DNA of 20,824 nucleotides from a virus. Its lineage: Duplodnaviria > Heunggongvirae > Uroviricota > Caudoviricetes. Positions 1 to 11,534 of this stretch are shown here, piece by piece (the stretch's first letter is position 1; every line of letters begins with the position of its first letter). Below the pieces are notes generated by a model. That model saw only the letters and a list, made by a program, of their open reading frames with translations. It searched no databases and was not told where the DNA came from. The position numbers and the translations under genes are program-made. Location of the stretch: IMG/VR virus record IMGVR_UViG_2529293076_000030, one strand, 5' to 3'.

Positions 1-1143
1 CTATGCTGTTTTGATATCTACGATAATCCAGTCTTTACCACGATCATCATTGTATCGGTCGGTCATTTTTCTGGATTTATGACCTAACAACTTTTGCGTA
101 TCCAGACCCTGTTCCCGATATAACCGTTCTGACAGAGATCGCTGCTCATGAAATGTGGGCGCAGTTCCTTGCTCCCATTTTATGCCACATTTTTCCCTGG
201 CCTTTTTAAAAGCCGTTGTAAGAGTATTTGCAGACACCTGGTCTCCTCTGTTTGCTTGAGAGGTAGTGTGACGGTAATGGACCAGATATTTACTAACAAC
301 AGCATCCCTGCACTGAGATATAACTTCACGAAGGGTAATATTCAGAGCATCGCATTTCAGGTTAAGCGGAATAGCAAGTTTTGAACCGGTTTTTTCCTGA
401 GTAATGTGCAACATGTCGTCCCAGATATCAGAGAATTTCAAATTGCAGATATCGCTTAAACGTTGTCCAGTGACAAGAGCAAGTAGCATCCCGCATTTTA
501 AATAGGGCTGCCGTCTGCTTACGCTGTCAAATATTGCCTGCCATTCGGGCAGTGATAATCTTTGACGGTTTACTCGATTTCGCGGTTGTTTTGTTGCCTG
601 CGCTGGGTTAAATCCTGGCGGAACATGTCCTGCGTGTTGTGCTTCTTTGAAGACGTCGATCAACACCATTCTCACGACTTGCGCCATCCTGTTATGACCT
701 TCAGCCTTTACAGCATCAATTATTTCGGCAATATCAAGTGCGGTAATATCCTTGAGGTGTTGCATTCCACAATGCTCACGGAAAAGACGGATGGGTTTGC
801 CTTTTTGCCGATAGGAGTTGGGTCTTAGTTCATTATGTTGCAGCCTGTCCTCCTGGATAGAATTATATTTATCAAGCCATTCTGTCACCGTAATGTCTGA
901 GCGCCTGCCTTTCATTCTTTCCAGACGCTCATTGACGCTTAATATTTGTCGGGTACGTTGTTCAGCAATAATGGTATTTGCTTCAGTAGCAACTTGTTTT
1001 GCTTCATTCTCATCAGTTCCTAAGCTATGAAAACGACCGGATAGTGGATGTTTGTATTGCCAATATACCTTTCCGGTTCGCTTATCTAATTTGCAATATA
1101 AATTGGGTATAGAGATTTTGTGAGATCGGGGGCTAGCAGCCAT
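1..1143 (-). CDS. int: Lambda-family tyrosine integrase (380 aa); stop codon at window positions 1-3
   Basis: Complete minus-strand ORF. N-terminus (SPRSHK...PNLYCKLDKRTGKVYWQY) and C-terminus (PTFHEQRSLSERLY...LLGHKSRKMTDRYNDDRG) align by eye with lambda Int arm-binding and catalytic regions, including the box-II HxxR and catalytic Tyr context. Recognition from memory. Confidence 0.85.
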   Translation of the reverse strand: MAASPRSHKISIPNLYCKLDKRTGKVYWQYKHPLSGRFHSLGTDENEAKQVATEANTIIAEQRTRQILSVNERLERMKGRRSDITVTEWLDKYNSIQEDRLQHNELRPNSYRQKGKPIRLFREHCGMQHLKDITALDIAEIIDAVKAEGHNRMAQVVRMVLIDVFKEAQHAGHVPPGFNPAQATKQPRNRVNRQRLSLPEWQAIFDSVSRRQPYLKCGMLLALVTGQRLSDICNLKFSDIWDDMLHITQEKTGSKLAIPLNLKCDALNITLREVISQCRDAVVSKYLVHYRHTTSQANRGDQVSANTLTTAFKKAREKCGIKWEQGTAPTFHEQRSLSERLYREQGLDTQKLLGHKSRKMTDRYNDDRGKDWIIVDIKTA

Positions 1144-1369
1144 CAGCGATTATCCGTTGGAGTTTTGGGTTTGCGTTTATTGGGAGTTGCGGTTCTGCAA
1201 GCGTTCCTACAAAACGGGAATTTCGGTCAATCATCCAGTAGCGACCAACTTTTATAGCGGGTGGGGCCATCATTTTCCCTTGCGCGTATTTTTTCAGAAC
1301 TCGCTCACTTGGTGCTAAGTCCCCAAATTCTTCTTTAGCCCAGTCCCGTAAAGTGATTAGTCGAGACAT
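1133..1369 (-). CDS. xis: Excisionase-like small DNA-binding protein (78 aa)
   Basis: Small basic ORF immediately upstream of int, overlapping its start by 11 nt. Strong SD (GAGGAGG on minus strand, + coords 1371-1379) before the ATG. Position and size typical of lambdoid Xis. Confidence 0.6.
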   Translation of the reverse strand: MSRLITLRDWAKEEFGDLAPSERVLKKYAQGKMMAPPAIKVGRYWMIDRNSRFVGTLAEPQLPINANPKLQRIIADGC

Positions 1370-1472
1370 TTGTCCTCCTCTTAGCTGCTGAGGGAGTTTG
1401 TGACCGATATATCTGACATGATATTAAGCTCATGGCAGGTACATCTCTTGACTGGTCATAGAGATAAATTTA

Positions 1473-2297
1473 ATGCTGAGAAATGCAGTATTGAATTTAT
1501 CAATTTTTCACCAGCTTCTGGTCTTTCTGGCTGTCATGCGCAAAACATATGGCTTTAATAAAAAACTGGATTGGGTTAGCAACGAGCAACTTTCCGAATT
1601 AACCGGGATATTGCCGCACAAGTGTTCTGCTGCAAAAAGTGTTCTGGTAAAGCGTGGGATTTTTATTCAGAGCGGGCGGAATACCGGCATTAATAATGTG
1701 GTCAGTGAATGGTCAACATTACCCGAATCAGGTAAGAAAAATAAAGTTTACCTGAAAGAGGTAAATTTACCTGAATCAGGTAAAAAAAGTTTACCCAAAT
1801 CAGGTAAAGGCGTTTACCCGAATCAGGTAAACACAAAAGACAAACTAACAAAAGACAATATAAAACCTTTTTCGTCCGAGAATTCTGGCGAATCCTCTGA
1901 CCAACCAGAAAACGATCTTCCTGTGGTGAAACCGGATGCTGCAATTCAGAGCGGCAGCAAGTGGGGGACAGCAGAAGACCTGACCGCCGCAGAGTGGATG
2001 TTTGACATGGTGAAGACCATCGCGCCATCAGCCAGAAAACCGAATTTTGCAGGGTGGGCTAACGATATCCGCCTGATGCGTGAACGTGACGGACGTAACC
2101 ACCGCGACATGTGCGTGCTGTTCCGCTGGGCATGCCAGGACAACTTCTGGTCCGGTAACGTGCTAAGTCCGGCCAAACTCCGCGACAAGTGGACCCAGCT
2201 CGAAATCAACCGTAACAAGCAACAGGCAGGCATGATAGCCAGCAAACCAAAACTCGACCTGACAAACACTGACTGGATTTACGGGGTGGATTTATGA
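1473..2297 (+). CDS. O: Replication initiator O (274 aa); C-terminal two thirds near-identical to lambda O, N-terminal DNA-binding part divergent and about 36 aa shorter
   Basis: Residues from ~FSSENSGESSDQPENDL to the C-terminus (..TNTDWIYGVDL) match lambda O as I recall it. Central part encodes repeated LPESGKK peptides from the iterons. No SD before the ATG at 1473; the frame opens after a TGA at 1449-1451. Confidence 0.85.
   Translation: MLRNAVLNLSIFHQLLVFLAVMRKTYGFNKKLDWVSNEQLSELTGILPHKCSAAKSVLVKRGIFIQSGRNTGINNVVSEWSTLPESGKKNKVYLKEVNLPESGKKSLPKSGKGVYPNQVNTKDKLTKDNIKPFSSENSGESSDQPENDLPVVKPDAAIQSGSKWGTAEDLTAAEWMFDMVKTIAPSARKPNFAGWANDIRLMRERDGRNHRDMCVLFRWACQDNFWSGNVLSPAKLRDKWTQLEINRNKQQAGMIASKPKLDLTNTDWIYGVDL
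1719..1830. repeat. Replication origin iterons: five 17-bp near-palindromic repeats (TTACCYGAATCAGGTAA-like) inside the O gene, followed by an A-rich stretch (1831-1867)
   Basis: Repeats seen directly at 1719-1735, 1750-1766, 1767-1783, 1791-1807 and 1814-1830. Arrangement (iterons then AT-rich region within the O linker) matches the organisation of ori-lambda, but with five copies and a different repeat sequence. Confidence 0.75.
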
Positions 2298-2995
2298 AAA
2301 ACATCGCCGCACAGATGGTTAACTTTGACCGTGAGCAGATGCGTCGGATCGCCAACAACATGCCGGAACAGTACGACGAAAAGCCGCAGGTACAGCAGGT
2401 AGCGCAGATCATCAACGGTGTGTTCAGCCAGTTACTGGCAACTTTCCCGGCGAGTCTGGCTAACCGTGACCAGAACGAACTGAACGAAATCCGCCGCCAG
2501 TGGGTTCTGGCTTTCCGGGAAAACGGGATCACCACAATGGAACAGGTTAACGCAGGAATGCGCGTAGCCCGTCGGCAGAATCGACCATTTCTGCCATCAC
2601 CCGGGCAGTTTGTTGCATGGTGCCGGGAAGAAGCATCCGTTATCGCCGGACTGCCAAACGTCAGCGAGCTGGTTGATATGGTTTACGAGTATTGCCGGAA
2701 GCGTGGCCTGTATCCGGATGCAGAGTCTTATCCGTGGAAATCGAACGCGCATTACTGGTTGGTTACCAACTTGTACCAGAACATGCGGGCCAATGCGCTG
2801 ACTGACGCGGAATTACGGCGCAAGGCTGCCGATGAACTGACCTGTATGACAGCGCGAATTAACCGTGGTGAGACGATACCTGAACCAGTAAAACAACTTC
2901 CTGTTATGGGCGGTAGACCTCTAAATCGTGCACAGGCTCTGGCGAAGATCGCAGAAATTAAAGCTAAGTTCGGACTGAAAGGAGCAAGTGTATGA
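2294..2995 (+). CDS. P: Replication protein P (DnaB helicase loader), 233 aa
   Basis: Near-identical over full length to lambda P as recalled (MKNIAAQMVNFDREQMRRIANNMPEQYDEKPQ...AKFGLKGASV). ATGA overlap with O stop. Confidence 0.92.
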   Translation: MKNIAAQMVNFDREQMRRIANNMPEQYDEKPQVQQVAQIINGVFSQLLATFPASLANRDQNELNEIRRQWVLAFRENGITTMEQVNAGMRVARRQNRPFLPSPGQFVAWCREEASVIAGLPNVSELVDMVYEYCRKRGLYPDAESYPWKSNAHYWLVTNLYQNMRANALTDAELRRKAADELTCMTARINRGETIPEPVKQLPVMGGRPLNRAQALAKIAEIKAKFGLKGASV

Positions 2996-3294
2996 CGGGC
3001 AAAGAGGCAATTATTCATTACCTGGGGACGCATAAGAGCTTCTGTGCACAGGACGTTGCCGCGGTAACAGGTGCAACCGTAACCAGCATAAATCAGGCTG
3101 CGGCTAAAATGGCGCGGGCAGGAATCCTGGTCGTTGATGGTAAGGTCTGGCGAACGGTGTATTACCGGTTCGCTACCAGAGAAGAACGGGAAGGAAAGGT
3201 GAGCACGAATCTGATTTTTAAGGAGTGTCGCCAGAGTGCCGCGATGAAACGGGTATTGAGGGTATATAAAAGAACATCAATGGGTACACAATGA
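2992..3294 (+). CDS. ren: Ren protein (100 aa), C-terminal end differs from lambda Ren
   Basis: MTGKEAIIHYLGTHKSFCAQDVAAVTGATVTSINQAAAKMARAGILV... matches lambda Ren; the last ~10 residues diverge, consistent with a recombination junction at the 3' end. ATGA overlap with P. Confidence 0.8.
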   Translation: MTGKEAIIHYLGTHKSFCAQDVAAVTGATVTSINQAAAKMARAGILVVDGKVWRTVYYRFATREEREGKVSTNLIFKECRQSAAMKRVLRVYKRTSMGTQ

Positions 3295-3311
3295 TGAAAC
3301 AGGTGAGTTGA

Positions 3312-3346
3312 GTTCAAACTGTAGTACAATTCTCTCCAGTTTGAAC
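3312..3346 (+). promoter_or_regulatory. Perfect 10-bp inverted repeat (GTTCAAACTG / CAGTTTGAAC) with 15-nt loop, 15 nt upstream of emrE start; function unknown
   Basis: Seen directly. No U-tract follows, so not a canonical intrinsic terminator. An SD-like AGGAAAG (3347-3353) follows before the emrE ATG at 3362. Confidence 0.3.
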
Positions 3347-3361
3347 AGGAAAGAATATGTT

Positions 3362-3694
3362 ATGAACCCTTATATTTATCTTGGTGGTGCAATACTTGCA
3401 GAGGTCATTGGTACAACCTTAATGAAGTTTTCAGAAGGTTTTACACGGTTATGGCCATCTGTTGGTACAATTATTTGTTATTGTGCATCATTCTGGTTAT
3501 TAGCTCAGACGCTGGCTTATATTCCTACAGGGATTGCTTATGCTATCTGGTCAGGAGTCGGTATTGTCCTGATTAGCTTACTATCATGGGGGTTTTTCGG
3601 CCAACGGCTGGACCTGCCAGCCGTTATAGGCATGATGTTGATTTGTGCCGGTGTGTTGGTTATTAATTTATTGTCACGAAGCACACCACATTAA
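3362..3694 (+). CDS. emrE: Small multidrug resistance (SMR) efflux transporter EmrE, 110 aa
   Basis: MNPYIYLGGAILAEVIGTTLMKFSEGFTRLWPSVGTIICY... matches E. coli EmrE essentially full length, including the conserved membrane-embedded Glu (E14) context. The ORF-track start at 3308 is an upstream extension. Confidence 0.92.
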   Translation: MNPYIYLGGAILAEVIGTTLMKFSEGFTRLWPSVGTIICYCASFWLLAQTLAYIPTGIAYAIWSGVGIVLISLLSWGFFGQRLDLPAVIGMMLICAGVLVINLLSRSTPH

Positions 3695-3724
3695 AAATAA
3701 TTTCTTTTAAAAGACTGCAATATG

Positions 3725-3757
3725 GCGGTTCATATCTTTACATGGGCCGCTTTTGTT
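3725..3757 (+). terminator. Candidate intrinsic terminator downstream of emrE
   Basis: Imperfect 9-bp stem (3725-3733 / 3742-3750, two G-U pairs), 8-nt loop, then TTTTGTT. Confidence 0.4.
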
Positions 3758-3938
3758 AATGTTTTTAGTTTTTGTGTATTCTTTTGTGCCTTCAAGATTA
3801 TTGCGTAAGCAAATTGCAATACGATTATTGTTGTATATTCAAGATAGTGTGATCGTAATTGTCTTTTTAAATAAAAATTAAACAAAAATTATATCTCACC
3901 ACTAAGGTTTATAAAAGCATAAGTTAGCAGGTGTCACC

Positions 3939-5465
3939 ATGAAAAAAGCCATAGCATATATGCGATTTTCATCACCAGGTCAGATGTCTGGCGACTCATT
4001 AAACCGACAGAGAAGACTTATTGCTGAATGGTTAAAGGTAAATAGTGATTATTATCTTGATACCATAACATATGAAGATTTAGGATTAAGTGCATTCAAA
4101 GGAAAGCATGCACAATCAGGAGCTTTTTCGGAATTTTTAGATGCTATAGAGCATGGTTATATATTGCCAGGAACTACATTGTTAGTTGAAAGTCTGGACA
4201 GACTTTCAAGAGAAAAAGTCGGTGAAGCGATTGAACGTCTGAAATTGATTTTGAATCACGGTATTGATGTTATAACTCTTTGCGACAATACAGTCTATAA
4301 TATTGACTCTTTGAATGAGCCATATTCATTAATAAAAGCCATACTTATAGCACAAAGGGCAAATGAAGAAAGCGAGATAAAGTCAAGTCGGGTTAAATTA
4401 TCATGGAAGAAAAAACGGCAGGATGCACTGGAATCAGGTACGATTATGACGGCGTCTTGTCCGAGATGGCTCTCCTTAGATGACAAAAGAACGGCTTTTG
4501 TTCCAGACCCCGACAGGGTGAAAACTATTGAGCTAATTTTTAAACTCAGGATGGAAAGGCGCTCATTGAATGCAATAGCCAAGTATTTAAATGATCATGC
4601 TGTAAAGAATTTCTCAGGAAAAGAAAGTGCATGGGGGCCTTCTGTAATTGAAAAATTATTAGCGAATAAAGCTCTGATAGGTATATGCGTACCTTCATAT
4701 CGTGCAAGAGGGAAAGGGATAAGTGAAATCGCTGGCTATTATCCCAGAGTCATATCAGATGATTTGTTTTACGCTGTACAGGAAATTCGGTTGGCACCTT
4801 TTGGTATTAGCAATAGTAGCAAGAATCCTATGCTAATAAATCTACTTCGAACAGTTATGAAGTGTGAGGCTTGTGGTAATACCATGATTGTTCATGCGGT
4901 ATCTGGAAGTTTGCATGGCTATTATGTTTGTCCGATGAGAAGATTACATCGATGTGACAGGCCATCAATAAAGAGAGATTTGGTTGATTATAATATCATT
5001 AATGAATTGCTTTTTAATTGTAGCAAAATTCAACCAGTTGAAAACAAGAAAGATGCTAATGAAACTTTAGAGTTAAAAATTATTGAGCTTCAGATGAAAA
5101 TTAATAATTTAATCGTTGCATTGTCTGTCGCGCCTGAAGTTACCGCTATAGCAGAGAAAATAAGACTATTAGATAAGGAATTACGAAGAGCTTTGGTATC
5201 ATTGAAAACTTTGAAGAGTAAAGGTGTAAATTCATTCAGTGATTTTTATGCTATTGACTTAACCAGTAAAAATGGACGAGAGTTATGCCGTACACTTGCC
5301 TATAAAATATTCGAAAAAATCATAATTAATACGGATAATAAAACCTGTGATATCTATTTTATGAATGGCATTGTTTTTAAACACTATCCTTTAATGAAAG
5401 TAATATCCGCCCAGCAGGCGATAAGTGCTCTCAAATATATGGTTGATGGTGAGGTTTATTTTTGA
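3939..5465 (+). CDS. ybcK: Large serine recombinase (508 aa), DLP12 YbcK-like
   Basis: N-terminal resolvase-type catalytic motif (AYMRFSSPGQ, with the putative nucleophilic Ser) followed by a long recombinase domain and a Cys cluster (CEACGN...C...C) typical of large serine recombinases. Matches K-12 YbcK in length and position after emrE. AT-rich codon usage. Confidence 0.8.
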   Translation: MKKAIAYMRFSSPGQMSGDSLNRQRRLIAEWLKVNSDYYLDTITYEDLGLSAFKGKHAQSGAFSEFLDAIEHGYILPGTTLLVESLDRLSREKVGEAIERLKLILNHGIDVITLCDNTVYNIDSLNEPYSLIKAILIAQRANEESEIKSSRVKLSWKKKRQDALESGTIMTASCPRWLSLDDKRTAFVPDPDRVKTIELIFKLRMERRSLNAIAKYLNDHAVKNFSGKESAWGPSVIEKLLANKALIGICVPSYRARGKGISEIAGYYPRVISDDLFYAVQEIRLAPFGISNSSKNPMLINLLRTVMKCEACGNTMIVHAVSGSLHGYYVCPMRRLHRCDRPSIKRDLVDYNIINELLFNCSKIQPVENKKDANETLELKIIELQMKINNLIVALSVAPEVTAIAEKIRLLDKELRRALVSLKTLKSKGVNSFSDFYAIDLTSKNGRELCRTLAYKIFEKIIINTDNKTCDIYFMNGIVFKHYPLMKVISAQQAISALKYMVDGEVYF

Positions 5466-5584
5466 GTAATAATCACTTTTTCAACCGTGCTATGGTATGA
5501 AAGTAAAGTAACTACTATGATATTAACTATCGAGCAAGAATATCCCCAGGCACTCAACAGGGCGCAGGTCAACGTGAATCGGTC

Positions 5585-5776
5585 ATGACACGACACCGAT
5601 TTTGCGGAATCAATGTTGCTTATGAATACAACATCCCGCTTAGTACATGTTCAACACATCAGCAAATTTTGAACTGGGTGTGGCACTTAACTGAAAAAAC
5701 ATGGATGACACAAAATGTTACTCGTCGCTTCATTGAAGTAGCTTGTGGATATCACAAGCTAGACTATCGCCAATGA
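5585..5776 (+). CDS. Hypothetical 63-aa ORF; possibly a gene remnant rather than a real gene
   Basis: ORF only. No convincing SD. C-terminal ...RRFIEVACGYHKLDYRQ is faintly reminiscent of AraC-family C-termini; in K-12 the AraC-type gene ybcM lies at this position. Speculative. Confidence 0.2.
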   Translation: MTRHRFCGINVAYEYNIPLSTCSTHQQILNWVWHLTEKTWMTQNVTRRFIEVACGYHKLDYRQ

Positions 5777-5871
5777 TATTCAATTTTTGATTTTTTAGTA
5801 TCAACCTTCCATAATAATGTCACCGGAGCTTGAACAACTCCGGTGACTTCTGCGCATTTAAGGGGACTTAA

Positions 5872-5970
5872 ATGCGACCACAATCTGAACTCCTTACCTT
5901 GTCACAGATGCAGAAATGCACCTGCGATGTCTTGCATCCAGCGTTTGATCTCTGCGGAGGTGAAGCGTGA
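5872..5970 (+). CDS. ylcH: Small protein YlcH-like (32 aa)
   Basis: ATG 5872; translation [32 protein letters not shown]. Stop TGA overlaps the GTG start of the next gene (GTGA). Position immediately upstream of ybcN as in DLP12. Identity from memory is uncertain. Confidence 0.4.
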
Positions 5971-6422
5971 ACCTCCCACAAGATGGCATCAAATTACATC
6001 GCGGTAACTTCACCGCTGTCGGTCAGCAGATCCAGACTTATCTGGAAGACGGCAAATGCTTTCGCATGGTGCTTAAACCGTGGCGCGAGAGACGCAGTCT
6101 TTCCCAGAATGCACTCAGCCACATGTGGTACAGCGAAATCAGTGAATACCTCATCAGCAGGGGGAAATCGTTCGCTACTTCAGCATGGGTAAAAGATGCT
6201 CTCAAACACACATACCTCGGTTATGAAACCAAGGACCTGGTTGATGTCGTAACCGGCGAAATCACTACTATCCAGTCGTTACGCCATACCTCCGATCTTG
6301 GTACCGGAGAGATGTATGTCTTCCTGTGTAAGGTTGAAGCCTGGGCGATGAATATTGGCTGCCACCTGACTATTCCACAGAGCTGCGAGTTCCAGCTGCT
6401 GCGTGACAAGCAGGAGGCGTAA
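5967..6422 (+). CDS. ybcN: NinB-family protein YbcN (151 aa), GTG start
   Basis: [19 protein letters not shown]...[12 protein letters not shown] matches K-12 YbcN. SD GGAGG at 5956-5960. Confidence 0.85.
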
Positions 6423-6592
6423 TGGCTACACCGCTTATTCGTGTCATGAACGGACACATCTACAAAGTACCAAATCGTCGTAAGCGTAAACCTGAGCTGA
6501 AGCCATCCGAAATACCAACACTGCTCGGATATACCGCCAGCCTGGTTGATAAAAAATGGTTGCGACTGGCAGCAAGGAGGAATCATGGCTGA
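6422..6592 (+). CDS. ninE: NinE (56 aa)
   Basis: [56 protein letters not shown]. Not in the ORF track (<60 aa). ATG overlaps the ybcN stop (TAATG). Confidence 0.8.
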   Translation: MATPLIRVMNGHIYKVPNRRKRKPELKPSEIPTLLGYTASLVDKKWLRLAARRNHG

Positions 6593-6875
6593 TTTGAGAA
6601 AAGCAGCGCGTAGTCGGGAATGCCAAGTAAGAATCCCTGGCGTATGTAATGGCAACCCTGAAACGTCTGTACTGGCACATATCCGGCTGACTGGATTGTG
6701 CGGCACCGGTACCAAACCGCCAGACTTGATTGCCACCATTGCATGTTCTGCCTGCCACGACGAAATCGACCGCCGCACACATTTTGTCGATGCTGCATAT
6801 GCAAAAGAATGCGCGCTGGAAGGTATGGCGAGAACACAGGTTATCTGGCTGAAAGAGGGGGTTATTAAGGCGTGA
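6585..6875 (+). CDS. ybcO: YbcO (DUF1364 putative nuclease), 96 aa
   Basis: True start is ATG at 6585 ([23 protein letters not shown]...), overlapping the ninE 3' end by 8 nt. The ORF-track start at 6546 is an upstream extension. Cys/His-rich motif. Confidence 0.8.
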
Positions 6876-7234
6876 ATACCTACAGCATCACATTACCCTG
6901 GCCTCCGAGCAATAATCGCTACTACCGGCATAATCGCGGGCGCACGCACATCAGCGCAGAAGGGCAGGCATACCGTGATAACGTCGCCCGAATCATCAAA
7001 GGCTCCATGCTGGATATCGGCCTGGCTATGCCAGTGAAAATCCGTATTGAGTGCCACATGCCGGATCGCCGTCGCCGTGACCTGGATAATCTGCAAAAAG
7101 CCGCTTTTGACGCACTCACCAAAGCAGGTTTCTGGCTGGATGATGCTCAGGTCGTTGATTACCGTGTTGTGAAGATGCCCGTTACCAAAGGTGGGAAGCT
7201 GGAGCTGACCATCACCGAACTGGGGAATGAATGA
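6872..7234 (+). CDS. rusA: RusA Holliday-junction resolvase (120 aa), GTG start
   Basis: [25 protein letters not shown]...[30 protein letters not shown] matches E. coli RusA. GTGA overlap with ybcO. Confidence 0.9.
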
Positions 7235-7371
7235 TGTTTGAGTCTTATATGGCAGAACGTCTTCGCCACCGCTGGATGCGCCTGCGCTTATATCGTTTTC
7301 CTGGTTCTGTTTTGACCGATTACCGGATACTGAAGAATTACGCCAAAACACTGAAAGGAGCTGCCGCATGA
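7231..7371 (+). CDS. ylcG: YlcG-like small protein (46 aa)
   Basis: [46 protein letters not shown]. Overlaps rusA stop and Q start. Confidence 0.6.
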
Positions 7372-8057
7372 ATACCCAATATTTACAGTATGTCCGCGAG
7401 CAACTCATTGTGGCTACCGCTGATTTGAGCGGAGCAACGAAAGGACAGCTTGAAGCCTGGCTGGAGCATGCACAATTTGATACTGGTACATACAAACGAA
7501 AGAAGCCGCGCATTCTGGATGAGGTAACTGGCAGGATGATTACGCTGGATAATCCGCCGATTTCCGGTAAGCAGTCGTACGCAAAAGGTTCATCCATTGC
7601 ACTGGTCAGCCAGGTTGAGTTCTCAACCTCGTCATGGCGCCGCGCGGTTCTGTCTCTCGAAGAACATCAGAAAGCGTGGTTGCTGTGGAGTTACAGCGAA
7701 AGTGTTCGCTGGGAACATCAGGTCACCATAACGCAGTGGGCATGGAGCGAGTTTAAGACTCTGTTGGGTACCAGGAAAATTGCAGGTAAGACACTGGAAC
7801 GTTTGAAGAAGTTGATCTGGCTGGCGGCACAGGATGTGAAGAACGAGCTGGCAGGGCGTAAGACCTATGAATACCAGGAGCTGGCATCACTGGTGGGAGT
7901 GACATCAAAAAACTGGTCTGAGACATTTACTGAACGCTGGGTTGCAATGAAACACATTTTTCTACAGCTTGATAGCCAAGCTTTATTGCTTTTAACGAAA
8001 ACACGTTCAAAACAAAAGACCACATTTTCACAGCAAGATATTGCAAAACTGGATTAA
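7368..8057 (+). CDS. Putative late-gene antiterminator (Q-like), 229 aa; not lambda Q
   Basis: Assignment is mainly positional: after rusA/ylcG, before a strong promoter, two intrinsic terminators and the lysis cassette. Sequence lacks the Cys cluster of lambda Q and I do not recognise its family with certainty. Confidence 0.5.
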   Translation: MNTQYLQYVREQLIVATADLSGATKGQLEAWLEHAQFDTGTYKRKKPRILDEVTGRMITLDNPPISGKQSYAKGSSIALVSQVEFSTSSWRRAVLSLEEHQKAWLLWSYSESVRWEHQVTITQWAWSEFKTLLGTRKIAGKTLERLKKLIWLAAQDVKNELAGRKTYEYQELASLVGVTSKNWSETFTERWVAMKHIFLQLDSQALLLLTKTRSKQKTTFSQQDIAKLD

Positions 8058-8069
8058 AAATCATATATT
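8041..8069 (+). promoter_or_regulatory. Candidate sigma70 late promoter (pR'-like): -35 TTGCAA (8041-8046), 17-bp spacer, -10 TATATT (8064-8069)
   Basis: Hexamers and spacing read directly. Overlaps the last codons of the Q-like gene, as pR' does relative to Q in lambdoid phages. Confidence 0.4.
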
Positions 8070-8125
8070 TTATGTAAATCTGATATTTTGCCAATGTTGT
8101 ACGCACTGGCAGTAATCCAAATTCA

Positions 8126-8159
8126 AGCCCGAGGTTTAAAGCCTTGGGCTTTTCTGTTT
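8126..8159 (+). terminator. Intrinsic terminator hairpin plus T-tract
   Basis: Stem AGCCCGAGG / CCTTGGGCT, loop ~5 nt, followed by TTTTCTGTTT. Confidence 0.55.
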
Positions 8160-8238
8160 CTGAACGGTGAGTAGCCTTCCAACCTACCCCAGCCAGGGGG
8201 TCTTCAGCTGTTGAGTTGATATTGCTTAGCCCTCTGTT

Positions 8239-8264
8239 GCCAGCTACATGCTGGCTTTTTTATT
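8239..8264 (+). terminator. Intrinsic terminator (tR'-like)
   Basis: Perfect 6-bp GC-rich stem GCCAGC / GCTGGC, 5-nt loop, then TTTTTTATT. About 188 nt downstream of the candidate promoter start, similar to the ~194-nt lambda 6S RNA. Confidence 0.6.
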
Positions 8265-8378
8265 CCAGGCTTGTGGGGAGCATCAACTCCGTGCTTTGTC
8301 GTTAAATTACCCCGTGAGCCTGATTTCTGACATTTAACGTCCCGGCCTTTTGTCGGCGGCGAAACATTGGCTATTCAT

Positions 8379-8684
8379 ATGCACGAAAAAGAGAGCCTTG
8401 CCGGAGCGTTCTGGCTCGTTTTGCTGATCATCGCAGGTTGGGGCGGTCTGGTCCGCTACCTGATAGATGTGAAGCAGAGTAAAGCAACGTGGAGTTGGAT
8501 AAATGCTCTGGCTCAAATAGTGGTATCAGGATTCACCGGTGTTATTGGTGGCCTGATCAGCATCGAAAGTGGATTCAGTATTTACATGATTCTCGCGACA
8601 GCGGGGATTAGTGGTGCGATGGGTTCGGTTGCACTGACGTACTTCTGGGAACGACTGACAGGGGTGAAAAATGCAAAATCTTAA
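8379..8684 (+). CDS. Putative holin (101 aa from ATG 8379), three predicted transmembrane segments; not lambda S
   Basis: Three hydrophobic stretches (AGAFWLVLLIIAGWGGLV; INALAQIVVSGFTGVIGGLI; IYMILATAGISGAMGSVAL) and a short charged C-terminus. Overlaps the endolysin start by 14 nt, as S/R do in lambda. The ORF-track start at 8367 is a TTG. Confidence 0.6.
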   Translation: MHEKESLAGAFWLVLLIIAGWGGLVRYLIDVKQSKATWSWINALAQIVVSGFTGVIGGLISIESGFSIYMILATAGISGAMGSVALTYFWERLTGVKNAKS

Positions 8685-9147
8685 TCCTCAGCGTAAAGCC
8701 TTCCTCGATATGTTGGCGTGGTCAGAAGGAACGGATAACGGGCGACAACCGACACGTAACCACGGTTATGATGTTATTGTTGGCGGCGAACTGTTTACTG
8801 ATTACTCCGATCACCCTCGCAAACTTGTCACGCTACACCCCAAACTCAAATCAACAGCCGCCGGACGTTATCAGCTTCTTTCACGCTGGTGGGATGCTTA
8901 CCGTAAACAGCTTGGTTTGAAAGACTTCTCCCCCAAAAGCCAGGACGCAGTGGCATTGCAGCAGATTAAAGAGCGTGGTGCTTTACCTATGATTGATCGC
9001 GGTGATATCCGTCAGGCAATCGACCGTTGCAGTAATATCTGGGCTTCACTGCCGGGCGCTGGTTATGGTCAGTTCGAGCATAAGGCTGACAGCCTGATTG
9101 CAAAATTCAAAGAAGCTGGCGGAACGGTCAGAGAGAGTGAGGTATGA
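8671..9147 (+). CDS. R: Endolysin R, lambda-type lytic transglycosylase (158 aa)
   Basis: [47 protein letters not shown]... near-identical to lambda R as recalled. Confidence 0.92.
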
Positions 9148-9605
9148 GCAGAATAACCGCGATTATCTCCGCTCTGCTCATCTGCATCATCGTCTGCCTG
9201 TCATGGGCTGTTAATCATTACCGTGATAACGCCATTACCTACAAAGCCCAGCGCGACAAAAATGCCAGAGAACTGAAGCTGGCGAACGTGGCAATTACTG
9301 ACATGCAGATGCGTCAGCGTGATGTTGCTGCGCTCGATGCAAAATACACGAAGGAGTTAGCTGATGCGAAAGCTGAAAATGATGCTCTGCATGATGATGT
9401 TGCCGCTGGTCGTCGTCGGTTGCACATCAAAGCAGTCTGTCAGTCAGTGCGTGAAGCCACCACCGCCTCCGGCGTGGATAATGCAGCCTCCCCCCGACTG
9501 GCAGACACCGCTGAACGGGATTATTTCACCCTCAGAGAGAGGCTGATCACTATGCAAAAACAACTGGAAGGAACCCAGAAGTATATTAATGAGCAGTGCA
9601 GATAG
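9144..9605 (+). CDS. Rz: Rz inner-membrane spanin (153 aa)
   Basis: [60 protein letters not shown]... near-identical to lambda Rz. Confidence 0.9.
9364..9546 (+). CDS. Rz1: Rz1 outer-membrane lipoprotein spanin (60 aa), nested in the +1 frame of Rz
   Basis: [60 protein letters not shown]: lipobox LVVVGC and proline-rich stretch as in lambda Rz1. Confidence 0.85.
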
Positions 9606-9636
9606 AGCTGCCCATATCGATGGGCAGCTCATGCAA

Positions 9637-9930
9637 TTATTGTGAGCAATACACACGCGCTTCCAGCGGAGTATAAATGCCTAAAGTAATAAAACCGAGC
9701 AATCCATTTACGAATGTTTGCTGGGTTTCTGTTTTAACAACATTTTCTGCGCCGCCACAAATTTTAGCTGCATCGACAGTTTTCTTCTGCCCAATTCCAG
9801 AGACGAAGAAATGGTGGGTGATGGTTTCCTTTGGTGTTACTGCTGCCGGTTTGTTTTGAACAGTAAACGTCTGTTGGGCACATCCTGTAATAAGCAGGGC
9901 CAGCGCAGTAGCGAGTAGCATTTTTTTCAT
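9637..9930 (-). CDS. bor: Bor lipoprotein (serum-resistance moron), 97 aa
   Basis: MKKMLLATALALLITGCAQQTFTVQNKPAAVTPKETITHHFFVSGIGQKK... essentially identical to lambda Bor. Lipobox LITGC. Confidence 0.92.
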   Translation of the reverse strand: MKKMLLATALALLITGCAQQTFTVQNKPAAVTPKETITHHFFVSGIGQKKTVDAAKICGGAENVVKTETQQTFVNGLLGFITLGIYTPLEARVYCSQ

Positions 9931-10211
9931 GGTGTTATTCCCGATGCTTTTTAAAGTTCGCAGAATCGTATGTGTAGAAAATTAAACAAACCCTAAACAA
10001 TGAGTTGAAATCTCATATTGTTAATATTTATTAATGTATGTCAGATGCGAAGGATCGTCACTGTATTCCCGGATTAACTATGTCCGCAGCCCTGACAGGG
10101 AAACTCCTCTGCGGGAGTGTCCGGGAATAATTAATAACGATGCACACAGGGTTTAGCGCGTACACGTATTGAACCGCCCCGGTTTTCCTGGAGAGTGTTT
10201 TATCTGTGAAC

Positions 10212-11099
10212 TCAGGCTGCCAGATCATCGTTTCTGATGGAAGCATAATAAGCTTTTTCTGCTTCTGCCGGAGGGATATGACCCAGCCTTCCCAGCAATC
10301 GTCGATTGTTATACCAGTCCACCCACGTGAGTGTGGCCAGTTCCACTTCTGCACGGTTTTTCCAGCTCTTACGGTGTATTACCTCCGCTTTGTAAAGACC
10401 ATTGATGCTCTCCGCCATCGCGTTGTCATACGAGTCACCTGTACTCCCTGTTGATGCCAGCAGTTTTGCTTCTTTTAGTCGCTCCGTATAGGCCAGTGAT
10501 ATATACTGAGAACCTTTATCACTGTGATGGACTGTGCCGGACGGCCGACGGGCCCACAACGCCTGCTCCAGTGCATCCAGCACGAATGTCGTTTCCATAG
10601 ACGATGAGACTCGCCACCCCACGATACATCCGGCAAACACATCAATGATGAACGCCACATAGACGAAGCCCTGCCATGTGCTGACGTAAGTAAAATCAGC
10701 CACCCACAGCTGGTCAGGACGTTCTGCCACGAACTGACGGTTTACGCGGTCGCCTGCGGAAACGGCTTTCCGGCTGACGGTAGTACGGACCTTTTTACCC
10801 CGGAGAACACCGGCAAGTCCCATAACCGCCATGAGGCGCGCCACTGTACATCTGGCCACCCTGATACCTTCGCGTAACAACTGGCGCCAGACTTTACGCA
10901 CACCGTACACCTGATGATTTTCATCGTATACGCGCTGTATCTCTCTCTTCAGCCAGTCATCGCGCTGAGCACGGGCACTGCGTTTATCAGGATGATGTCG
11001 CTGTTGCTGACAGTGGTAATACGTTGACGGGGCAATATGCAGTTCACTGCATACCGGTCCGACCCCGTACTGCTCACGCAGCTTATCCAGCAGCGGCAT
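10212..11099 (-). CDS. IS629-type transposase OrfB (DDE integrase-like catalytic domain), 295 aa from first ATG; normally expressed as an OrfAB fusion by -1 frameshift
   Basis: Contains DDE-type motifs (WVADFTY..., HSDKGSQY..., YDNAMAESINGLYKAE) characteristic of IS3-family transposases. In the -1 frame relative to orfA. Confidence 0.85.
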   Translation of the reverse strand: MPLLDKLREQYGVGPVCSELHIAPSTYYHCQQQRHHPDKRSARAQRDDWLKREIQRVYDENHQVYGVRKVWRQLLREGIRVARCTVARLMAVMGLAGVLRGKKVRTTVSRKAVSAGDRVNRQFVAERPDQLWVADFTYVSTWQGFVYVAFIIDVFAGCIVGWRVSSSMETTFVLDALEQALWARRPSGTVHHSDKGSQYISLAYTERLKEAKLLASTGSTGDSYDNAMAESINGLYKAEVIHRKSWKNRAEVELATLTWVDWYNNRRLLGRLGHIPPAEAEKAYYASIRNDDLAA

Positions 11100-11425
11100 T
11101 ATTTTTTCCAGAGGCGGTCGAACTCCGCCTTCGCAAAATAAGCGGAAGCCTGGCGAAGGATATCGTTACTGCGGCGCAGTTCACGATTTTCACGTTCCAG
11201 CTCTTTCAGACGCTGACGTTCAGCGGTGGTGAGTCCACCATCACCACTCCCGGTATCCCGCTCATGCTGACGAACCCACACACGCAGAGTCTCTGGTGTA
11301 CAGCCAATCTTTGGGGCAATGGAACAAATTGCCGCCCATTGTGAGTCATATTCGCCCTGACTTTCCAGAACCATACGAACTGCTCGTTGACGGACCTCGG
11401 GGGAAAAACGTGTATTTTTAGTCAT
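11099..11425 (-). CDS. IS629-type transposase OrfA (108 aa, HTH/leucine-zipper part)
   Basis: [57 protein letters not shown]... typical IS3-family OrfA. Ends ...WKK* at an A6 run that overlaps the orfB start. Confidence 0.85.
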
Positions 11426-11534
11426 CCTGTTTACCTCTTTCTCAGGGAGTTTAGTCTCCAGGATTCCCGGGGCGGTTCATATTGCATTATGCCAACGCCC
11501 CGGTGCTGACACGGAAGAAACCGGACGTGATGAT

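Follow-up and report, generated by a model that had tools for sequence, protein, structure and literature searches.

The reading frame at positions 1473-2297 (+ strand, 274 codons, ATG start) of the analyzed stretch of DNA (20,824 nucleotides, hereafter the window) is, with high confidence, the remnant of the replication initiator gene O of the lambdoid prophage Sp8 of E. coli O157:H7 together with its internal origin, belonging to a non-lambda class and truncated at the 5' end by a 7.1-kb deletion. A single deletion of this size fused the spacer beside xis to O codon 48; lost with it were the genes for recombination, the immunity region (cI/cro/YdaT) and its early promoters, the ribosome-binding site of O, and the first 47 O codons. 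The 274-codon frame is best read as a fusion artefact of 12 chance codons and O codons 48-309. The preliminary description had offered a distinct O/ori class and a truncation as alternatives; the evidence supports both at once, and the locus is a case of ordinary prophage decay.

Genomic context of the reading frame

Positions 1-10171 of the window were base-for-base identical to Sakai Sp8, and the window differs from it by a 1.3-kb IS insertion at approximately 10172-11479, absent from Sakai. The frame is Sakai ECs_1611, annotated there as an ordinary CDS, 'phage replication protein'. It is preceded on the minus strand by the integrase gene (1-1143, 380-aa ORF, annotated in TR01 and Sakai as a site-specific integrase lying downstream of icd) and the excisionase gene (1133-1369; Pfam PF07825 Exc, E 3.7e-5; annotated excisionase). 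The prophage is integrated next to icd: the int gene is identical in Sakai and TR01, and there icd is directly upstream of it. On the other side, an intact lambda-type P gene of 233 aa (2294-2995, + strand; Pfam PF06992, E 9.5e-62, full profile 1-162 of 162) starts in overlap with the O stop and is followed by ren (2992-3294, + strand; 'protein ren' in TR01, C1-057, and phages).

Deletion junction

Homology to intact O begins at window position 1509, which is codon 13 of the frame and codon 48 of intact O. The stretch 1509-1900 had 100% DNA identity to an internal part of O in PhiR34_1, and the whole O' pseudogene (1509-2297, + strand; codons 48-309 of the 309-aa O initiator) showed two amino-acid differences from PhiR34_1 O across all 262 codons. 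Positions 1380-1509 matched, at 100% identity, the spacer next to xis of Lambda_2E9 and of many other phages; in intact phages, the left flank of the deletion (1370-1509) is the spacer from xis to a minus-strand DUF4222 gene. The first twelve codons of the frame (1473-1508, + strand; MLRNAVLNLSIF) are fortuitous, being read from spacer DNA, and by the alignments do not belong to O. The missing N-terminus is already known from PGAP, in which a pseudogene starts at 1509 with the note 'replication protein; incomplete; missing N-terminus'.

The junction was placed at 1509 by a three-way alignment and by BLAST break points against Lambda_4C10, with a 1-nt overlap in which one shared C is the microhomology. 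Window positions 1-1509 were 99.1% identical to Lambda_4C10 L009:2062-3570, and positions 1509-4343 mapped to L009:10656-13501. Relative to Lambda_4C10, 7,086 bp are missing, which amount to 15 genes, cI and cro among them, and O codons 1-47; the undeleted layout is int-xis-DUF4222...exo-recT-gam...cI-cro-ydaT-O-P-ren-emrE-ybcK. The suspected 5' truncation of O by a deletion was thus borne out. The frame had also been described as about 36 residues shorter than lambda O, which is right as a net figure (35), and the anatomy behind it is a loss of 47 O residues and a gain of 12 unrelated ones.

Of 5426 complete E. coli genomes, 296 covered the junction in full. That it arose as an artefact of assembly or sequencing can be dismissed outright, as the identical junction recurs across these independently assembled genomes. 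The junction carriers, among the matches listed, were all O157:H7 or unlabelled Shiga-toxin-type (VTEC) or cattle strains, and the other approximately 2400 genomes with any match had at most one half of the junction probe covered.

The lost N-terminus

Intact O has 309 aa from MANTAE in PhiR34_1, strain R10, and the O157:H7 strains Z570 and C1-057, and all four genes carry the same five iterons as the window, shifted by exactly 105 nt. In 14 of 16 aligned relatives, drawn from a search of 5.8 billion proteins, the start was MAN(T/I)AE(I/V); in the other two, this motif follows an upstream-called start. When same-iteron relatives were inspected for extra N-terminal residues, every intact one was found to start 47 residues upstream, at MANTAE(I/V), and none of the intact relatives started at the equivalent Met. 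A GGAGG Shine-Dalgarno sequence lies 4 nt upstream of the start in PhiR34_1, where it was checked; in Sp8, the true O start and its GGAGG fall within the deleted segment.

The Pfam Phage_rep_O (PF04492) match begins at residue 13 of the frame with the first 27 profile positions missing, and the rest of the origin-binding domain (1509-1718, + strand) covers positions 28-95 of 95. Unlike lambda O, the Sp8 copy is without codons 1-47, Shine-Dalgarno sequence, and pR: it has neither the complete N-terminal origin-binding domain of a lambda-type O nor a start codon of its own that is served by a ribosome-binding site and placed downstream of pR and the genes in the cro/cII position.

Residues 1-47 of intact O were at least 90% conserved at most positions among the aligned relatives. 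Within residues 21-47, 13 of 27 positions were identical in this class, Klebsiella phage GZ7, P22 gp18, and lambda O. The motif shared by the four, VA-LDDG--R--N-LLEA, reads VADLDDGY-R--N-LLEA in this class and is lost here. An AlphaFold model of an intact relative (P0001) was used for helix positions only, as it was based on 18 aligned sequences (shallow) and had a core pLDDT of 65-81 and a mean of 53. It predicts a helix at residues 28-42, which would be wholly lost in O', and helices at intact-O residues 47-61, 72-79, and 83-95 plus a wing, which would be kept in 1509-1718. Searching the PDB by sequence with the 309-aa intact O gave no match at E up to 1, and Foldseek of the model against the PDB gave nothing significant, the best hits (E ~0.65) being generic winged-helix regulators of the MarR/Lrp type.

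The 274 open codons with an ATG start, the annotation of ECs_1611, and the presence of the exact 274-aa protein on approximately 1000 contigs would also suit an intact O of a distinct class with a naturally short N-terminus. We regard this as extremely unlikely: homology to intact O ends inside the frame, relatives with identical iterons extend N-terminally by 47 more conserved residues, codons 1-12 correspond to non-coding spacer of other phages, and the incomplete Pfam match and the PGAP pseudogene call point the same way. The junction alignment, the intact relatives, and the Lambda_4C10 layout together refute it. The 'short divergent N-terminus' noted earlier is not a class trait, the first 12 codons being unrelated DNA from beside xis.

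The internal origin

Inside the truncated frame, the 17-nt near-palindrome TTACCYGAATCAGGTAA occurs in five direct copies within 1719-1830, all on the + strand: 1719-1735 (TTACCCGAATCAGGTAA, 0 mismatches to TTACCYGAATCAGGTAA), 1748-1764 (TTACCTGAAAGAGGTAA, 2 mismatches), 1767-1783 (TTACCTGAATCAGGTAA, 0 mismatches), 1791-1807 (TTACCCAAATCAGGTAA, 1 mismatch), and 1814-1830 (TTACCCGAATCAGGTAA, 0 mismatches). The start-to-start spacing is 29, 19, 24, and 23 nt. When both strands were scanned with up to 3 mismatches, 10 matches were obtained vs 0.07 expected from shuffles, and 10 was reached by no shuffle. Once one flanking base is added per side, four of the five iterons form a 19-nt unit, TTTACC-N7-GGTAAA; the exception is iteron 1 (1719), with ATTACC on its left side. 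In translation, the iterons are LPESGKK-type linker repeats between the two halves of O. Directly 3' of iteron 5 lies an A-rich tract, ACACAAAAGACAAACTAACAAAAGACAATATAAAACC, with ACAAAAGACAA repeats (1831-1870, + strand), which probably is the DNA-unwinding region of the origin; it is homologous to the tract after lambda iteron 4 and to those in P22 and Klebsiella phage GZ7. Both the five embedded near-palindromes and the A-rich stretch of the preliminary description were thus recovered.

With at least four direct inverted-repeat iterons of ~19 bp and an A/T-rich tract to the right of the last one, the array is, to judge from its sequence, the same kind of origin as ori-lambda. It is of another specificity class, because the iteron is TTTACCYGAATCAGGTAAA here and ATCCCTCAAAACGAGGGA in lambda. 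An ori-lambda-type origin has its cognate initiator encoded in cis and is transcribed rightward from pR; here both are missing, the deletion having taken the start of O as well as the entire immunity and pR region. The iteron array and the A-rich tract are intact, but because the initiator and the activating transcription are missing, the origin would be orphaned and silent unless a cognate O comes in trans. This agrees with the earlier suggestion of a possibly orphaned origin.

No description of the TTTACC-N7-GGTAAA iteron sequence was found in the searchable literature. Searches there for a name of this origin class, including phage 82 and ori82, yielded nothing useful, and protein clusters supplied only 'replication protein' as a class name. 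ori82 has five repeats, and the DLP12-like module here might be of the phage 82 type.

Relatives of the O/ori class

The sequence comparisons indicate that this O/ori belongs to a real and common non-lambda specificity class, made up of a winged-helix-like N-domain (MANTAE...), five TTTACC-N7-GGTAAA iterons, the A-rich tract, a lambda-type C-terminal half, and a lambda-type P. In many intact phages and prophages, the N-domain is accompanied by its own iterons, as expected of the different specificity type proposed earlier. The N-terminal coding piece deleted here was found in 2284 of 5426 complete E. coli genomes (42%) and in at least 15 sequenced phages, and this O class may be the commonest in E. 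coli. Intact 309-aa O genes with 97-100% DNA identity to window 1509-1900 are carried by the temperate phages PhiR34_1, 4A7, Lambda_4C10, Perceval, 1W, and 3W, and by E. coli prophages. Where the iterons were checked, in PhiR34_1 and three E. coli prophages, the same five are present with unchanged relative placement. Lambda_4C10 has int-xis and P-ren-emrE-ybcK as neighbours in common with the window, and the intact relatives differ from Sp8 in keeping the 47 N-terminal codons, the GGAGG site (checked in PhiR34_1), and the upstream cI-cro-ydaT.

The class resembles lambda O/ori in its PF04492 N-domain, in having inverted-repeat iterons embedded in the coding sequence and an A-rich tract next to them, and in its C-terminal half, which overlaps the P gene that follows. 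The C-terminal half (1871-2297, + strand) is of lambda type by DNA identity: in the 3' half of the gene, starting near gene position 540, blocks of 60 nt showed 95-100% identity to lambda O, so the C-terminal part had been correctly described as lambda-like. The C-terminal part of lambda O is the one that interacts with P. Lambda O differs in having 299 aa and four iterons, ATCCCTCAAAACGAGGGA, vs five of TTTACC-N7-GGTAAA here, and the N-domain is ~41% identical to that of lambda O over a query of 168 N-terminal residues (47% over residues 1-120).

In its N-domain, the class is nearer to P22 gp18 (54-57% identity) than to lambda O. The P22 origin has four annotated repeats, also with TTTACC...GGTAAA half-sites, followed by the same ACAAAAGACAAT repeats. 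These repeats, however, have a 5-nt centre vs 7 nt here and occur in four copies vs five, and the C-terminal half of gp18 pairs with a DnaB-type helicase (gene 12), not with lambda P. The locus is thus outside the P22 gene 18/origin class, given its 7-nt centre and its C-terminal half and downstream gene of lambda O/P type. A further group of 'replication proteins', 284-294 aa long, comes from prophages of E. coli and Salmonella (e.g. P0012 and P0068); it has a 73-88% identical N-domain and the same LPESGKK linker, i.e. the iteron read as protein, but beyond the A-rich tract the C-terminal half is different and non-lambda-like. In the Salmonella members, LPESGKKS is repeated two more times, implying seven iterons. 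The class is a good natural system for co-variation of initiator domain and iterons, although the biology is of a known kind.

Expression and possible function of O'

In a consensus scan, no sigma-70-like promoter was found in 1100-2400, and no Shine-Dalgarno sequence was found before the ATG at 1473. This ATG is enclosed in a 16-bp hairpin, an inverted repeat followed by a T run and terminator-like (1463-1501, + strand); the RNA fold of 1440-1530 was -22.9 kcal/mol (z -2.76). The fusion frame is probably not expressed, to go by these signals, and weak or read-through expression of the 274-aa product may nevertheless occur. The product, if made, would be without a conserved part of the origin-binding domain, and, as the predicted winged-helix core (three helices and wing) is kept, it may still have residual DNA binding.

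It is very unlikely that O' is still made and works as the initiator of its own origin, with the 47 residues dispensable. Such a function could draw on the retained predicted helices and wing, the iteron-encoded linker, the lambda-type C-terminal half, and the intact P. The lost segment, however, contains the motif that is best conserved across lambda O, P22 gp18, and this class, and within the class most of its positions are conserved to at least 90%; in addition, there is no promoter-like site or Shine-Dalgarno sequence, the ATG is buried in a hairpin, pR is deleted, and Sp8 did not replicate on induction (PMC2669165).

State of Sp8

After mitomycin C, Sp8, which is without cI and cro, neither circularised nor replicated, and it was not packaged (PMC2669165). 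The in-silico table of the same study (Asadulghani et al. 2009) scored the Sp8 replication genes as conserved, '+' (PMC2669165). The Sakai annotation and that study treat the O of Sp8 as conserved, whereas PGAP and the present analysis find a 5'-truncated pseudogene. Under the truncation reading, Sp8 neither replicates nor circularises on induction because O lacks 47 conserved residues and cI, cro, and pR are lost. The value of the finding is mostly the correction of the ECs_1611 annotation and the in-silico table, and the locus makes a tidy example.

Possible action of the origin in trans

Lambda-type origins need transcription nearby. It is unlikely that the orphan origin acts in trans, with a cognate O either firing it and amplifying Sp8/icd or being titrated or handcuffed, damping the other phage. 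By analogy with lambda, the loss of pR would weigh against firing. Replication of lambda is blocked by multicopy ori-lambda fragments (PMC3349717, PMC4488673), but the published inhibition needs multicopy plasmids, and the origin here is in one chromosomal copy. Inhibition in one of the studies also needs oop and its promoter pO, which by position on lambda's map would lie within the deleted segment; an exclusion like the ori-lambda inhibition phenotype is unlikely on both counts. Regional replication amplifies neighbouring prophages in Sakai, yet Sp8 itself was unamplified there, the weight of this depending on Sakai holding a cognate O (PMC2669165).

The broader idea that the origin is not inert, binding the O of a co-resident or superinfecting phage and firing or serving as a decoy or handcuff, possibly with a dominant-negative O' product, seems quite improbable. 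If it were true, the Sp8/icd region might be amplified in place, or the replication of the other phage damped; the O' product, keeping the lambda-type C-terminal half, could add the dominant-negative effect. Action in trans is favoured by the presence of the class in 42% of complete E. coli genomes and by strain C1-057 (O157:H7), where the Sp8 pseudogene and its origin (1574267-1575055) coexist with an intact O whose iterons are identical (2910607-2911626).

Truncation of the O gene

Four independent lines of evidence show that the ORF at 1473-2297 (274 codons) is a 5'-truncated O gene joined to unrelated DNA. The Pfam Phage_rep_O match (E 3.3e-19) started at ORF residue 13 and spanned profile positions 28-95 of 95; the ORF thus has nothing that corresponds to profile positions 1-27. 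When compared with phage genomes by megablast, the region was broken at a single base. Positions 1509-1900 matched the interior of the PhiR34_1 O gene at 100% identity and were 97-98% identical to 4A7, Lambda_4C10, Perceval, 1W, 3W, and others, while 1380-1509 matched another locus at 100% identity in many phages of the lambda type, namely the spacer separating xis from DUF4222, the PGAP name of a small minus-strand gene beyond that spacer. The junction was placed at 1509 by three-way alignment, with one shared C. From codon 48 on, the window and PhiR34_1 O differ in two residues only, and in TR01 and C1-057 PGAP labels the sequence equivalent to 1509-2297 "replication protein; incomplete; missing N-terminus".

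The O proteins of PhiR34_1, strain R10, and the O157:H7 strains Z570 and C1-057 have 309 aa, counted from MANTAEIFNF. This start is preceded by GGAGG four bases 5' of the Met (checked in PhiR34_1), and is also the PGAP start in Z570 and that of related 284-294-aa proteins; some records annotate 339 aa from an upstream ATG. All four genes contain the five origin iterons of the window, shifted by exactly 105 nt, which equals 47 codons lost minus 12 gained. The preliminary description had proposed looking for extra N-terminal residues in relatives with the same iterons, and these 309-aa genes contain them. It had left open whether the gene was truncated or of a separate O/ori specificity type; both apply at once. 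The feature is a prophage pseudogene that was already known; its orphaned origin belongs to a common class other than that of lambda.

Two relatives, P0139 (269 aa) and P0141 (283 aa), are other 5'-truncated forms of the same O class in other E. coli genomes; one such form begins MLAGLTQHQ and another is a different fusion, MCLTSIANELL. From these, joint loss of the O 5' end and the immunity region seems to recur in decaying prophages.

Extent and distribution of the deletion

The undeleted order in phage Lambda_4C10 (record L009) is int, xis, DUF4222, small genes, exo, recT, gam, further genes, a cI-like repressor, a cro-like gene, a YdaT-domain gene in the cII position, O, P, ren, emrE, and a ybcK-like recombinase. 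L009:2062-3570 aligned with window 1-1509 (99.1% identity) and L009:10656-13501 with 1509-4343 (96.1%). The 7,086 bp missing relative to Lambda_4C10 hold 15 annotated genes and the O 5' end. The left break point (window 1509; L002:2630; L009:3570), with 1 nt of microhomology, is the final base of the DUF4222 stop codon. This is probably a coincidence, but the end of DUF4222 could be a phage module boundary.

Of 5426 complete E. coli genomes, 296 covered a 141-nt junction-spanning probe over its whole length, which argues against an assembly error as the cause of the junction. Among the names shown, the positive genomes were O157:H7 or unlabelled VTEC/cattle strains; in the approximately 2400 other matching genomes, coverage never exceeded one half of the probe. 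This distribution points to a single deletion event fixed in a lineage.

Residues lost from the initiator

When the window ORF was aligned with 17 relatives, the majority of positions 1-47 showed at least 90% conservation, and nothing aligned with the first 12 residues of the ORF. Four divergent intact initiators (those of the O class of the window, Klebsiella phage GZ7, P22, as gp18, and lambda, as O) share 13 identical residues among the 27 at positions 21-47; the resulting motif, VA-LDDG--R--N-LLEA, is better conserved than any other part of the N-domain. The AlphaFold model of an intact relative had a core pLDDT of 65-81 and a mean of 53, low because of a disordered linker. It predicted helices at 28-42, 47-61, 72-79, and 83-95, with a short wing after them; the deletion takes out the whole of predicted helix 28-42, together with the residue at which the next one begins. 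The model gave no significant match against the PDB and no solved homologue of O was found by sequence, so any structural role of the lost helix is a matter of prediction.

Origin repeats and specificity class

Five direct copies of a 17-nt near-palindrome (consensus TTACCYGAATCAGGTAA) start at 1719, 1748, 1767, 1791, and 1814 (spacing 29, 19, 24, and 23 nt), with 0, 2, 0, 1, and 0 mismatches, respectively. Since each near-palindromic copy also matches the minus strand, the total was 10 matches; dinucleotide-preserving shuffles gave an expectation of 0.07. Extended by one base per side, all copies but one take the form TTTACC-N7-GGTAAA; the exception, at 1719, has ATTACC on the left. The A-rich tract at 1831-1870 follows directly and contains two ACAAAAGACAA repeats. 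The five repeats and A-rich stretch described previously were thus confirmed, at 1719-1830 and 1831-1870; both are intact and match those of working phages exactly. The iteron sequence was not found in the searchable literature.

The lambda-like C-terminal part of O noted earlier was also borne out, the 3' half of the gene being 95-100% identical to lambda O DNA. Read as protein, the iteron is the LPESGKK linker. The N-domain and this linker are paired with either of two C-terminal halves: the lambda type, as in the window, or a non-lambda type, which occurs in E. coli and Salmonella proteins of 284-294 aa. The mosaic junction falls immediately past the A-rich tract. Iteron number varies within the class; two Salmonella proteins (P0039 and P0068, 294 aa) have two extra LPESGKKS repeats in the alignment, implying seven iterons. 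The 141 nt coding for the lost N-terminus occurred, at an identity of at least 95%, in 2284 of 5426 complete E. coli genomes, and the protein cluster of intact O has 7,825 members.

The N-domain of Klebsiella phage GZ7 is 82% identical to the window class, and its iterons have the same TTACC...GGTAA half-sites, two being identical to the window consensus. That of P22 gp18 is 54-57% identical. The P22 origin (L010:1001-1087) has four annotated repeats with half-sites TTTACC/GGTAAA, as in 1719-1830, followed by the same ACAAAAGACAAT repeats, but its repeat centre is 5 nt rather than 7 nt, which would make the two a convenient natural comparison for studying the recognition of half-site spacing. 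Lambda O is more distant (approximately 41% identity over a 168-residue N-terminal query, and 47% when the first 120 residues were aligned); its four iterons have a different sequence, ATCCCTCAAAACGAGGGA, and unrelated half-sites, whereas the A-rich tract after them is homologous. By sequence, the specificity class is real, distinct from that of lambda, related to that of P22, and joined to a lambda-type P-interaction module; such joining is ordinary lambdoid mosaicism. The class might be the phage 82 origin type.

Expression signals and state of the origin

The P gene is intact; the O 5' end and the entire immunity/early-promoter region are absent, and the pR region and the genuine ribosome-binding site both lie within the deleted segment. 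Upstream, int and xis are on the strand opposite to the ORF. No sigma-70-like promoter was found on either strand of 1100-2400 (1.3 expected by chance), and no Shine-Dalgarno sequence precedes the substitute ATG at 1473. This ATG is enclosed by a plus-strand 16-bp AT-rich hairpin followed by a T run (1463-1501; -22.9 kcal/mol, z -2.76), which ends at the junction. In intact phages the hairpin lies between xis and the DUF4222 gene, and its terminator-like direction is antisense to the leftward early operon.

The lambda origin requires rightward transcription for activation. Here such transcription would be absent and no cognate initiator would be made in cis; O', the fusion product, if made, would lack a conserved part of the DNA-binding domain. 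With neither initiator nor transcription, we infer that the origin is a silent orphan.

A cognate initiator can co-occur with the orphan origin in one cell: C1-057 has the Sp8 pseudogene (1574267-1575055) and also, at a distance of 1.3 Mb, an intact O whose five iterons are the same. An effect of the single chromosomal copy in trans is nevertheless unlikely, since the published inhibition of lambda by ectopic copies of ori-lambda depended on multicopy plasmids, and one study required oop with its promoter pO as well (PMC3349717, PMC4488673). In the second prophage of C1-057 and Z570, which carries the intact O, a SIR2-family gene adjoins the repressor upstream of that O, and a YdaS-family gene in the cro position is frameshifted.

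Correspondence with prophage Sp8

Positions 1-10171 are identical to prophage Sp8 of O157:H7 Sakai, integrated beside icd, in which the ORF is ECs_1611, annotated "phage replication protein". Sp8 lacks cI and cro, and its circularisation, replication, and packaging were all not found (Asadulghani et al. 2009, PMC2669165). The O truncation is consistent with this negative induction result and corrects the in-silico score of the Sp8 replication genes, which were listed as conserved (PMC2669165). This correction to the Sp8 annotation and literature, along with the description of the iteron class, is worth keeping.

Downstream of ren are emrE (3362-3694) and a 508-aa serine-recombinase-like, ybcK-like gene (3939-5465), which is intact in the window and Sakai and marked frameshifted in TR01. 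The same order in the free phages PhiR34_1 and Lambda_4C10 shows emrE to travel as phage cargo. Relative to Sakai, an insertion of approximately 1.31 kb at 10172-11479 has terminal inverted repeats (TGAACCGCCCCGG...), its ends being ambiguous by a few bases because of target duplication and terminal repeats. Its two ORFs (295 and 108 aa, both on the minus strand) are typical of the IS3 family, and it resembles IS629. The window matches Sakai on both flanks, with 5 mismatches over the 6,485 bases that follow.
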